Part shown: in pieces, positions 8,314 through 12,223 of the stretch
Layout: each line of letters begins with the position of its first letter
Position numbering within the stretch: the stretch's first letter is position 1
IMG/VR virus record: IMGVR_UViG_3300037484_000250
Coordinates: 1-64,000 of that record
From: a virus
Taxonomy: Duplodnaviria; Caudoviricetes
Direction: 5' to 3' (one strand)
Length of the DNA stretch: 64,000 nt
Position numbers and translations under genes: made by a program
Notes under the pieces: generated by a model
What the model was told of the DNA's origin: nothing
The model's input: the letters and a program-made list of their open reading frames with translations, nothing else
The model's database searches: none

Positions 8314-8419
8314 GAAGCGAATCAATGACAAAAGAATAGCACCATGTAGCCAGAGTGAGCCAATCTTCATGAATTAAAACAATATACAAGAGCGAACCAA
8401 TCACGGGAAGATGCCCATA
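8314..8419 (+). repeat. TIGR-like dual-repeat array 1, leader-proximal segment (about 3 units)
   Basis: AGCGAATCA / AGTGAGCCA / AGCGAACCA edge repeats at 36-38 nt spacing with an intervening loop repeat ending in CCA/ACA. Confidence 0.85.
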
Positions 8420-9665
8420 TCAACTACCCAATAGCTAAAGCTAGGGGTTTGCAAGTAGCGAAGAGATAATTCAAACTCCTGCGTATGGCTTGTTGACGGT
8501 AGCCCTGTCGCGAATATTCACGGCAGCGTTAATGTCAGCATGAGCAACGAAACCACATGCTGTACATTCAAAATGAGATTGAGTTTTCCTATTCTTCTTA
8601 TCAATTTTTCCGCATCTAGAGCACTCTCTTGAGGTATTACGAGGGTCAACGAATTGAAGTTCAATACCTGAGAGAACAGCTTTATAAGTAACAAATAGGC
8701 GAAGTTGAGAGAATGCCCATGATGATAGTTCTCTTCGTTGTGCTTTCTTAACAGTTAACCGATCGCGTATTCCACCAAGGTCTTCCATGGCAATACCGCG
8801 ACCTGTGCCTTTAGCATCAGAGACTATGAGCTTGCTTATACAGTGGTTTGAATCGGTAGCAAATCGTTGTTCTTTCCTTCGATGTTTCTTTAGTAATCGT
8901 CTAGCAGACTTAGTGCCTTTCTTTTGGAGTTTCTTACGGAGATTACTGTATCGTCTGCGTACACCGCGAACGATAGATCCACTCATTACTCGGCCATCGG
9001 ATGTTGTCGCAATGTTGACTACACCAAGATCAATTCCAATAAAGTCTTTAACATCAATCTTTGGAGGTTCTGGCAATTCAACAACTAACATGAGGAAGAA
9101 TACTCCATCTTGCAAGATCAAGTCAGCCTGTCCTCTTACACGTTTGCCATACAGTAAACCTTGTTGATAATTGCCTATAATCATAGGGACTTTAATCCGA
9201 CCATCTAGTGTAAGGAGTGATGCAATTTCCAATCCATCAAATGAAAGTATTCTTTGATCGTAGACCATAGCACCTGTTTCCTTAAAAGTATGAAGTGTTT
9301 TCTTATCAGTCTTATAACTTTCGGAAACTTTGCCAATGGCGCGAACAACCATTTGGGATGATAATTCAAACTTTTCCCTAACTTCGTAGTAACAAAGTTT
9401 TTGGATGCCAATCTTACCAAGAGTTTTTGAGTCAAAAGCAATCCAACTAATGTAGTCACAGGCTAGATTGAATCGTTTCATGGTTTCGACTAATTGGTTG
9501 AATTGTTGACTAGTTGGCATTAGTTTTATCTTTAAGGTACAAAGCATTTCATCACCTCCTTTCTTACTTTATATTATATACCTATTGAGCGATTTAATCA
9601 ATACAAAGAAAAGGAACGACGAGGCCGCCTTCCTCCCCATGCGTGAACACAGGGGCTTCCAGCTA
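8420..9665 (-). mobile_element. TnpB-only IS200/IS605 (IS1341-like) element inserted in array 1 (ends +/-2 nt)
   Basis: Subterminal hairpins CAAACCCCTAGCTTTAGCTATTGGGTAGTTGA (right end) and GAAGCCCCTGTGTTCACGCATGGGGAGG (left end) on the minus strand; removing it restores one 36-nt array unit. Confidence 0.85.
8471..9547 (-). CDS. tnpB: RNA-guided endonuclease TnpB
   Basis: RuvC D (IGIDLG), E (IAMEDL) and D (HADINAAVNI); CSRCG..CTACG zinc finger; catalytic triad intact. Confidence 0.95.
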   Translation of the reverse strand: MLCTLKIKLMPTSQQFNQLVETMKRFNLACDYISWIAFDSKTLGKIGIQKLCYYEVREKFELSSQMVVRAIGKVSESYKTDKKTLHTFKETGAMVYDQRILSFDGLEIASLLTLDGRIKVPMIIGNYQQGLLYGKRVRGQADLILQDGVFFLMLVVELPEPPKIDVKDFIGIDLGVVNIATTSDGRVMSGSIVRGVRRRYSNLRKKLQKKGTKSARRLLKKHRRKEQRFATDSNHCISKLIVSDAKGTGRGIAMEDLGGIRDRLTVKKAQRRELSSWAFSQLRLFVTYKAVLSGIELQFVDPRNTSRECSRCGKIDKKNRKTQSHFECTACGFVAHADINAAVNIRDRATVNKPYAGV

Positions 9666-12223
9666 CGTCCGTGGTGAGTCAAAAAGAATGATATGACCAT
9701 GATAAGAGATCGAACCAAAGCGCTTGAAACCGTACAATAATTGGCGAGTGAACCATTGAGCAAGATTAATCAAGATTGGAAGAGTGAGTCATTTTATAAG
9801 AATTTTCAATAACAGTGAGCGAACCAAGGACGTTAAGTATTACCAGAAAATGTGAGTGAGTCAAAAGAGTAAGAGATAACCAGAAGATAAAATCGAACCA
9901 ACTGCATTGAGAGAACCATGGTATAGAAGTGAGTCACACGTTATGAGTTGCCCAACACGGTTGAACGAGTCAAATACCGAGATAGAAACAAATAAATGGA
10001 TCGAATCAATGAGCTAGAAAAGACGGATTGTACCAATGAATAAGGATCGAAACAACGAAGATGAGATACCCATATGCATGGATTGAATCAAACCAAATGA
10101 GATAACCATTGCCACCGATTGAATCATACCCATAGAATATTTCAGGATATTTGAGTGAGCCATTACATTCGATTATTTCAACAAGCAAGAGTGAGCCACG
10201 ACGATGGACAATTTCATTCCACAGAAGCGAGTCAATATATCTGATTAAACATGTTGTCAGAGCGATCCACAAAGGTTGAATATCCCATCTCTATTGAGTG
10301 AACCATGCCCTTCGATTATCTCATTGCCGAAGAGTGAATCATCCCACCAGATTTGCACATCACCGAAGAGTGAACCAACCCATAAGAGAGTGCCACGTCC
10401 ATAAAGTGAACCAATAACATAGACATCCAATAGCACAGAGTGAGTCAAACAATAGAATTTTCAAGATGAGCGAGCGAGCCGAGGATTTGAATGTAACAGG
10501 AAGGTGAGTGAGTCAGTAGTACAGGATTATTTCACAGTATTTAAGCGAGTCACGATATAGGACAGTATCATGAGAGTGAAGCGAGCCATATCAAATGATA
10601 ACACCATCTTATTCGAGTGAGTCAATGATGAAGATTATAACACTGCCCAAGAGCGAACCAACGATGAAGAGTGAGTCAAAGGTCTTTGAAAGTATTACGT
10701 ACTCTGTAGTGAACCAACATTAGGGATTATTTCAATTATTAGGAGTGAACCAATTCGCATGATAGCAACATGTCTATAGAGTGAGTCAACACATAAGAGA
10801 GTACCATGTCCATAAAGTGAACCAAGAATTCAGATAGTACCATGAACAAAGAGTGAGTCAAACAATAGAAATATTCAAGATAATCGAGCGAGTCAAGGGT
10901 TTGAATGTATCAGTAAGGGTGAGCGAGTCAGAGGACAGGATTGTTCCATAGCGATTAAGCGAGTCACGATATAGGACAGTAACGTGAAAGTGAAGCGAAC
11001 CACATCAAATGATTAGTACATCCATTCAAGTGAACCATGGTCATCAAGGTCTAGAGTGCCATGAAGTATGATCGAGCCATTGTAATTGGATAGCACCATA
11101 AGAATGAAGCGAACCATCTCTGTTGATAGTAACATCTGCTGAGAGTGAACCAATGATGAAGATTGTATCGTATATTCAGAGTGAGTCGAAACATTGATAG
11201 TTCCACATACAAGGAAAGAACCAAAAACTATAGATTATTTCAGGAAAAGCGAGTGAACCACGAACATAGATTTCTGCATTTTACGAGAGTGAGACAAGGT
11301 TTCCGAGTTGTACCAAAATTAGGGATCGAGTCATTAAATGAGATTAAAACACATTGGACGAGCGAGTCACTAATAAGAGATCGTAACAATGATAATGATC
11401 AAACCAACTGCATTGAGGATTCCAGTGTAGAGAAGTGAACCATATGATATGATAGCACCAATTTTCATTAGTGAGCCAACACACAAGATTACGAACAAAT
11501 CAGTGAAGCGAATCAATGACGATGGATAGTACCATGATCACGGAGTGAACCGCAACATATCTGAGTGAACCATAACAATAGATTGCATCGAAGAGAGCAG
11601 AGTGAACCATTTCTCAAGATAATCCCATGTACAAAGAGTGAACCATTATTCACTGAGAGTTCCAATAGAGATGAGTGAACCACTTCGCAAGAACCACCCA
11701 ATACTACAGAGTGAATCATTGTCTTTGATAGTGCCGAAGGTTGTGAGTGAACCACTTCGCATGATAGTAACATGTCTATAGAGTGAGCCAAAAACACCGA
11801 TATTTATCAAAGCTACAAAACGAACCAATATTGGAGAGAGAACCATGCCATTCGAGTGAATCAGCTTATCTGAGTGTGCCAATAGTCGTGAGTGAATCAC
11901 AAGATAAGACAGCACCGTATTTTTGGAGTGAGTCAAGTTTTCCGAGATTCCAGAACAGATGAGCGAATCATGTCTCAGGAGAGCACCAGAAACATGGAGT
12001 GAACCATTGGATGCGAGAGCACCACCTATGTTAAGTGAACCAAGATTGGTGACACATCATCTTCAAAGAGTGAGTCAATATTTGCGAGTGTACCATAGAA
12101 AGGGATCGAACCATACAGGCGGATTAAATCACACCAAAAGAGTGAACCATTGTTGCGGATAGTATCAGAGAAATTGAGTGAGTCATTATTTGCGAAGATC
12201 AACCAACAGATATGAGCGAATTA
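9666..12223 (+). repeat. TIGR-like dual-repeat array 1, main segment (about 70 units of about 36 nt)
   Basis: Units parse as edge AGYGARYCA + 9-nt spacer A + degenerate 8-10 nt loop ending YCA/ACA + 9-nt spacer B, e.g. AGCGAGTCA-CGATATAGG-ACAGTATCA-TGAGAGTGA-AGCGAGCCA; no ORF over 100 aa on either strand. Confidence 0.88.

Follow-up and report, generated by a model that had tools for sequence, protein, structure and literature searches.

Functional references for TnpB-only insertion sequences (IS) of the IS200/IS605 family (IS1341 group) are the TnpB of ISDra2 (PDB 8EXA, 8H1J) and the Geobacillus ISGst elements, and the guide of the TnpB omega-RNA is taken from the DNA just past the right end of the element (Meers et al. 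2023). A different RNA-guided system is formed by TIGR (tandem interspaced guide RNA) arrays, in which edge and loop repeats of 8–12 nucleotides (nt) alternate, separated by two short spacers, and from which 36-nt tigRNAs are processed; on the sense strand, both kinds of repeat begin with one common motif and end with another (Faure et al. 2025, PMC12045711). Both systems meet at one locus of the phage record IMGVR_UViG_3300037484_000250, where a tnpB-carrying element lies within a TIGR array. The stretch analysed here (the window) comprises the first 64 kb of this complete 83.5-kb IMG/VR record with direct terminal repeats, and coordinates are window positions unless marked as genome positions. 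Very probably, a TnpB-only IS200/IS605 element of approximately 1254 nt is located antisense in the TIGR array, 3' of a TCAC target derived from an edge repeat, and leaves an array unit of 26–28 nt when it is removed. The identity of the element, its ends, target motif, intactness and orientation as well as its absence from two related phages are directly supported by the comparisons described below.

Identity, ends and target of the element

TnpB relatives of the same size align with the protein of the window over the full length (91–71% identity). The RuvC residues D173, E255 and D338 and the zinc-ribbon cysteines C309, C312, C328 and C331 (two CxxC pairs) are invariant across 14 relatives, and these residues coincide with catalytic motifs in Cas12f and TnpB proteins of solved structure. 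TIGR units are found on both sides of the element, tnpB is encoded on the minus strand and the array is read on the plus strand. The initial annotation, made from the DNA alone, had described a TnpB IS with an intact RuvC triad inside the array and antisense to it, and is borne out in these respects. The element is present as a single copy in the phage. No Y1 TnpA (PF01797) was identified in the 83.5-kb phage, while the controls were positive, and there is no space for a tnpA gene between the left end of the element and tnpB. Since TnpB is present and Y1 TnpA is absent from the phage, the element is classified by its gene content as a TnpB-only, non-autonomous (IS1341-type) member of the IS200/IS605 family. 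Elements of this subgroup require TnpA in trans.

Copies of the element were gathered from metagenomes and genomes and their ends were compared in tnpB orientation. The genome search returned 19 matches, most of them due to chance, the real copies being L103, L105 and L114. A single-protein TnpB search of IMG/VR gave no match, and a TnpB profile search of the same database reached 61% identity at best. A search of GenBank phages for the element or its flank gave no near match, only a distant DnaD-like match to Bacillus phages. The promoter-like block upstream of tnpB is kept in L021 to L024. None of the other TnpB loci retrieved is located near a TIGR array; periodic signals of 36 nt at these loci were considered as TIGR arrays and rejected, being collagen-like coding repeats.

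At the left end, six close copies (window, L021, L022, L103, L105 and L114) have unrelated flanks up to a shared NTCAC, which is followed by CA, a variable stretch of one to three bases, ACG, a pyrimidine (T or C), AGC and then the subterminal hairpin. Five more distant copies also have TCAC or TCAT, equally far from the hairpin, with differing bases beyond. TCAY is thus located directly 5' of the left end in all eleven copies. Because it is common to eleven copies with otherwise unrelated flanks, this motif is regarded as the target of the family (transposon-associated motif, TAM), and the element starts immediately 3' of it. The left-end hairpin is conserved in eight loci, and the core hairpin was predicted by folding in the window copy, L021 and L022. 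At the right end, 11 of the 12 copies compared, whose flanks are unrelated, terminate in GTTGA, and L025 has GTTTA at this position. The hairpin of the right end covaries across these 12 copies. The flanks in the window contain no direct repeat, i.e. no target-site duplication. With these ends, the element splits the edge of the fourth array unit after its second position, 3' of a minus-strand TCAC target, and does not lie in the middle of a single spacer, where the initial annotation had placed it.

Minus-strand TCAC sites are enriched about five-fold in the three arrays of the genome, which hold 100 of the 389 sites and make up approximately 6% of the sequence. The element would have been inserted by the usual single-strand route of its family, 3' of a TCAC-type target, and the complement of the edge repeat would offer one such target on the minus strand roughly every 36 nt. 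In view of the enrichment of TCAC in the arrays, landing in an edge repeat would be expected rather than remarkable.

The interrupted TIGR array and its relatives

The ORF (open reading frame) listing of the window contains no long ORF between approximately 8315 and 12223, a region taken up by a periodic array with a total length of about 73 units. A 10-nt GAGTGAACCA-type motif repeats through the array with a modal spacing of 36 nt (strict edge-to-edge spacings of 36 nt in 26 out of 55 cases, 35 nt in six and 37 nt in another six). Most single units are 34–38 nt long, and few irregular ones measure 18, 20, 30 or 42 nt. The position profile of 38 regular units shows a 10-8-10-8 organisation, consisting of a conserved edge of 10 nt, 8 variable nt, a loop of 10 nt and again 8 variable nt. 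The loop begins with GA in 37 and finishes with CA in 33 of these units, and the edge on the plus strand starts with GA and ends with CCA or TCA, the start and end motifs being common to both repeats. Of the unit structure initially annotated, the modal length of 36 nt was confirmed, whereas the blocks are 10-8-10-8 and not 9-9-9-9. Judged by the alternation of its edge and loop repeats, the pair of short spacers, the unit of approximately 36 nt and the shared box D-like start and box C-like end, the region is considered a TIGR array.

Three arrays are found in the genome, with the motif on the plus strand only in all of them. A 351-amino-acid ORF (genome 77312–78367, plus strand), a putative tasA, is directly followed downstream by a co-oriented array (approx. 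78.4–79.7 kb). Its product, a candidate for the Nop-domain Tas protein that accompanies TIGR arrays, has only a weak Pfam match to the IS110 family (E 6e-4, below cut-off), and relatives of it adjoin arrays in two phages, G001 (86.7 kb, TasA 90% identical) and G002 (88.0 kb, 79%). Because both the shared GA...CA repeat ends and the co-oriented putative tasA are on the plus strand, the array of the window appears to be transcribed from left to right. Its leader promoter, which is without a -35 match, was missed by a consensus promoter scan. A cysteine-rich ORF of 58 amino acids (8058–8234, minus strand) is divergent from the array leader, and both related phages have kept its DNA beside the leader (matches to window 8166–8381). 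The leader side retains two complete units and a truncated third one, which comprises the edge, the 8-nt spacer A, the 10-nt loop and then only TA; about 70 units lie behind the element. Within the array, half units (edge, approximately 8–10 nt, edge, with spacings of 18 and 20 nt) occur at 10651–10678 and 11543–11572, and a segment of about four units (10438–10600) is present as a diverged duplication at 10851–11010. Half units and duplication point to recombination within the array.

G001 and G002 have the leader and an orthologous array in common with the window phage, along with flanking genes at approximately 70–79% identity of the DNA, and neither of them encodes a TnpB homologue. Since the orthologous array exists there without TnpB, and units lie on both sides of the insertion, the element most likely entered the lineage of the window phage after the array existed, in agreement with the order of events proposed initially. 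Counterparts of the unit just past the element, and above all of the following unit at 9708, are recognisable in both relatives, whereas units 1–3 have no counterpart in G001; the element is thus positioned at the seam between lineage-specific and shared array units. Between the unit 9708–9745 and its equivalent in G002 (L140, approx. 431–466), spacer A is identical and spacer B nearly so, while the units next to it are different, a pattern suggesting that particular guide pairs are under selection. A conserved ORF of 62–64 amino acids with its own ribosome-binding site is located inside the orthologous array, few units after the leader, in both relatives, and no homologue of it was found in the window phage (tblastn, best E about 1). 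The features of the locus are compiled in Table 1.

Table 1. Positions of the element, the TIGR array and associated features. Positions refer to the window unless another locus is named.
Feature	Position	Strand	Basis and remarks
IS200/IS605-family element, TnpB-only, 1254 nt	8420..9673	-	Ends by comparison with independent copies; right boundary 8418-8420
tnpB, 358 amino acids, intact	8471..9547	-	Pfam PF01385 (OrfB_IS605) and PF07282 (Cas12f1-like TNB domain)
Promoter-like site upstream of tnpB, TTGATT-17-TATAAT	9573..9601	-	Consensus scan, 10/12 positions
Left end with subterminal hairpin, including 9666-9673	9633..9673	-	Shared by the six close copies
Target site (TAM) CTCAC (family: TCAC or TCAT)	9674..9678	-	Complementary to the edge-repeat core GTGAG
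Putative omega-RNA scaffold and right end, with subterminal hairpin and terminal GTTGA	8420..8537	-	RNAalifold on copies
Predicted omega-RNA guide, 16-20 nt 3' of the right end	8400..8419	-	Expected from TnpB biology and the right-end boundary
Leader promoter of the TIGR array, TRTG-type extended -10	8255..8265	+	Read directly; -10 and following GGACAAGTATA block kept in two related phages
Leader-proximal TIGR units 1-3	8315..8419	+	Edges at 8315, 8353 and 8390; unit 3 cut short by the element
Distal TIGR array, approx. 70 units	9674..12223	+	Edges still well conserved
ORF of 62-64 amino acids in the related phages	L139 (G001:C1:1800-5400, minus strand) and L140 (G002:C1:13000-15900), approx. 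530-730 in array orientation		Starts in edge-like GTGAGTGG

Removal of the element and alternative explanations

The distance from the edge at 8390 to that at 9672 is 1282 nt, so that removal of 1246 nt leaves 36 nt and removal of 1254–1256 nt leaves 26–28 nt. The first of these values corresponds to the initial annotation, according to which the element extends from 8420 to 9665 in the middle of spacer B and its precise excision restores a perfect 9-9-9-9 unit of exactly 36 nt. The flank strings quoted for this join are indeed present at 8391–8419 and 9666–9681, and the arithmetic hits the modal unit length exactly; since the ends could be chosen freely, however, arriving at 36 is no independent test. 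The join requires an end at 9665, yet the eight nt at 9666–9673 recur at the start of the five other close copies (L021, L022, L103, L105 and L114) in unrelated flanks, and the target it implies is unlike the TCAY seen at all eleven left ends. It would furthermore produce an edge with G at position 2, unique among the edges listed, as the 38 regular units and all remaining edges carry A there. What had been taken for spacer B is mostly the left end of the element, so that the insertion provides no independent confirmation of the unit grammar, and an element ending in mid-spacer is regarded as extremely unlikely. Removal of 8420–9673 restores the A at edge position 2, which argues for an edge repeat split between positions 2 and 3, and yields a TAG-type downstream edge, a variant also present at 10707 and 11469. 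In silico, excision with these ends (8420 ± 2 to 9673) leaves the edge, the 8-nt spacer A and the 10-nt loop followed directly by the next edge, without a spacer B; the predicted junction of the empty site is loop-TA and then directly GTGAGTCA. Several points weigh against an insertion of approximately 1254 nt with such a junction. The excised unit of 26–28 nt is atypical compared to the 34–38 nt of most units, and insertions of IS200/IS605 elements are not known to remove target DNA, which leaves the missing 8 nt unexplained. The right boundary (8420) is uncertain by 2 nt, since the two positions past GTTGA are mostly C or T and then A. An outer left-end stem pairing the disputed bases 9666–9673 was predicted only in L022 and not in the window copy, and this long stem was dropped as support for their assignment to the element. 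Finally, no exact IS-free allele was found, and the empty-site junction is accordingly a prediction: G001 and G002 are too diverged to provide it, and exact-match searches of IMG/VR with the empty site, with spacer A plus loop of the interrupted unit, with the next unit and with the right end gave no match among the accessible records, which may lack those closest to the window. The empty-site pattern used there required GG before TGAGTCA and would have missed the predicted junction, but the search independent of the junction was empty as well. The interrupted unit has no paralogue in the genome, and spacer B is not recoverable by that route.

For the insertion next to the edge-derived TCAC, the short unit may plausibly stem from a pre-existing defective unit or from later out-of-register recombination. 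Closely related to this is the possibility that the same element, with the same ends, arrived in a normal 36-nt unit, and that 8–10 nt of spacer B beside the right end disappeared during insertion or later, by out-of-register recombination between repeats, by arrival from another IS-bearing array through recombination or by the use of an alternative boundary. Such a loss is possible but, on balance, somewhat unlikely. The deficit amounts to one spacer (8 nt) and is found exactly at the right-end junction, the half units of 18–20 nt and the segmental duplication are further recombination scars in the array, and the junction coincides with the border between lineage-specific units, without counterpart in G001, and shared ones; moreover, flexible boundary choice was described for the IS200/IS605 family (Meers et al. 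2023). On the other hand, the right end is complete to its terminal GTTGA, no allele documents a longer unit, and a pre-existing short unit fits the data equally well. A different proposal, that the insertion is kept because it is useful, either as a divider of transcription that confines leader-driven expression to the first units or through an antisense guide regulating the array, is considered very unlikely. It would be in line with the antisense orientation of the element and with the promoter-like site of tnpB facing the leader promoter in a convergent arrangement (Table 1), and the relatives also carry a foreign insert, the small ORF, few units into the orthologous array. The copy is, however, a single lineage-specific one that is absent from both relatives, the element shows every mark of a recent selfish insertion, and no intrinsic terminator is predicted on the plus strand inside it. 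The undecayed edges of the distal array are neutral in this question. Promoter-like sites in the distal array do not exceed the expectation from shuffled sequences, and an uncoupling of the distal units from the leader, as raised in the initial annotation, would be no more than a possibility from the sequence alone.

Predicted guide, significance and comparison with known systems

The guide of the TnpB omega-RNA reportedly derives from DNA beyond the right end, which at this locus belongs to the array. Folding of the last 181 nt of 12 copies with RNAalifold gave 30 base pairs, 18 of which show compensatory changes, and a long-range helix of the model closes on the terminal GTTG. This structure is consistent with a conserved omega-RNA scaffold whose end coincides with the right end of the element; a search against Rfam gave no match in 7500–13000. 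The omega-RNA would carry a guide copied from the minus strand of the 20 nt adjoining the right end (Table 1), which corresponds to the antisense reading of loop and spacer A in unit 3. An array-derived guide had also been proposed in the initial annotation, whose 20-mer lies within about 1 nt of our prediction; this follows from standard TnpB biology, a flank-derived guide being common to all TnpB elements. TnpB cuts DNA consisting of a TAM and a guide match, i.e. the donor joint after excision or an IS-free allele. The TnpB of the window would thus cut an IS-free copy of the site (TCAC followed by the guide sequence), which would favour retention or homing of the element. Guide-directed cleavage, the use of TCAC as TAM and the expression of the omega-RNA would all follow from established TnpB biology. 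Because no other near match to the guide behind TCAY is present in the 83.5-kb genome (the best has five mismatches in 16 positions), the phage would not be expected to cut itself. More speculatively, the edge repeats of TIGR arrays might be built-in landing pads for this particular IS605 lineage and TnpB with its array-derived guide a homing nuclease, which would cut the array in IS-free sister phages during co-infection, the element then being copied in by recombination. Landing pads and cutting of sister phages are, taken jointly, rather doubtful; if this were true, TIGR loci and IS605 elements should be recurrently linked.

Outside the array, a Fic/DOC-family protein (133 amino acids, Pfam E 1e-13) is encoded together with a preceding MazE/AbrB-like ORF of 84 amino acids (weak match, E 6e-4) at 6387–7043 on the minus strand. 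The two likely form a Doc/Phd-type toxin-antitoxin pair, located approximately 1.3 kb upstream of the array. Tandem repeats are present at the start of the record (1–127; a perfect 42-nt repeat in three copies) and at 62059–62265 (a 60-nt repeat in 3.5 copies, 98% identical).

In itself, the insertion is that of an ordinary TnpB-only IS200/IS605 element, real, intact and recent, in a known kind of array; it is the context that is new. No description of a TnpB insertion in a TIGR array was found in the literature searched. The main value of the analysis lies in a correction: the element is not usable as independent proof of the TIGR unit grammar, and its ends and its target motif are now defined. 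The locus furthermore documents, in a complete phage, the nesting of one RNA-guided system (TnpB and omega-RNA) antisense in the guide array of another (TIGR-TasA). With about 70 units behind an antisense insert of 1.25 kb, it offers a natural test of the transcription of long TIGR arrays, and it could be used to test TnpB as a homing nuclease between phage genomes.

Compared to described TnpB-only elements of the IS200/IS605 family, the element of the window has the same type of TnpB with RuvC D-E-D triad and zinc finger, subterminal imperfect hairpins instead of inverted repeats at both ends, no target duplication, a target (TAM) of 4–5 nt beside the left end, and a putative omega-RNA scaffold spanning the 3' end of tnpB and the right end, with a flank-derived guide. 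Its putative TAM (TCAC or TCAT) differs from those of ISDra2 (TTGAT) and ISGst2 (TTTAT). Unlike the reference elements, it is located in the TIGR array of a phage, and tnpA is found neither in the element nor in the phage. The nearest named TnpB, from Geobacillus, is 63% identical, whereas the TnpB of ISDra2 is very distant (E 8e-4).

The array shares with the TIGR-TasA arrays described by Faure et al. 2025 (PMC12045711) the alternation of edge and loop, the two short spacers, the 36-nt unit and the covarying repeat ends, and a putative tasA is present elsewhere in the phage. It differs from usual TIGR arrays in having spacers of 8 nt and repeats of 10 nt, in its length of about 73 units compared to the usual 5–15, in its distance of approximately 14 kb from the putative tasA and in being interrupted by a transposon. 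Insertions of IS elements into CRISPR arrays or cas loci resemble the situation in this phage in so far as a mobile element breaks a guide-RNA array and may split a transcription unit. In contrast to those cases, the inserted element comes with an RNA-guided nuclease of its own, and the repeat of the array contains the target motif of this nuclease.

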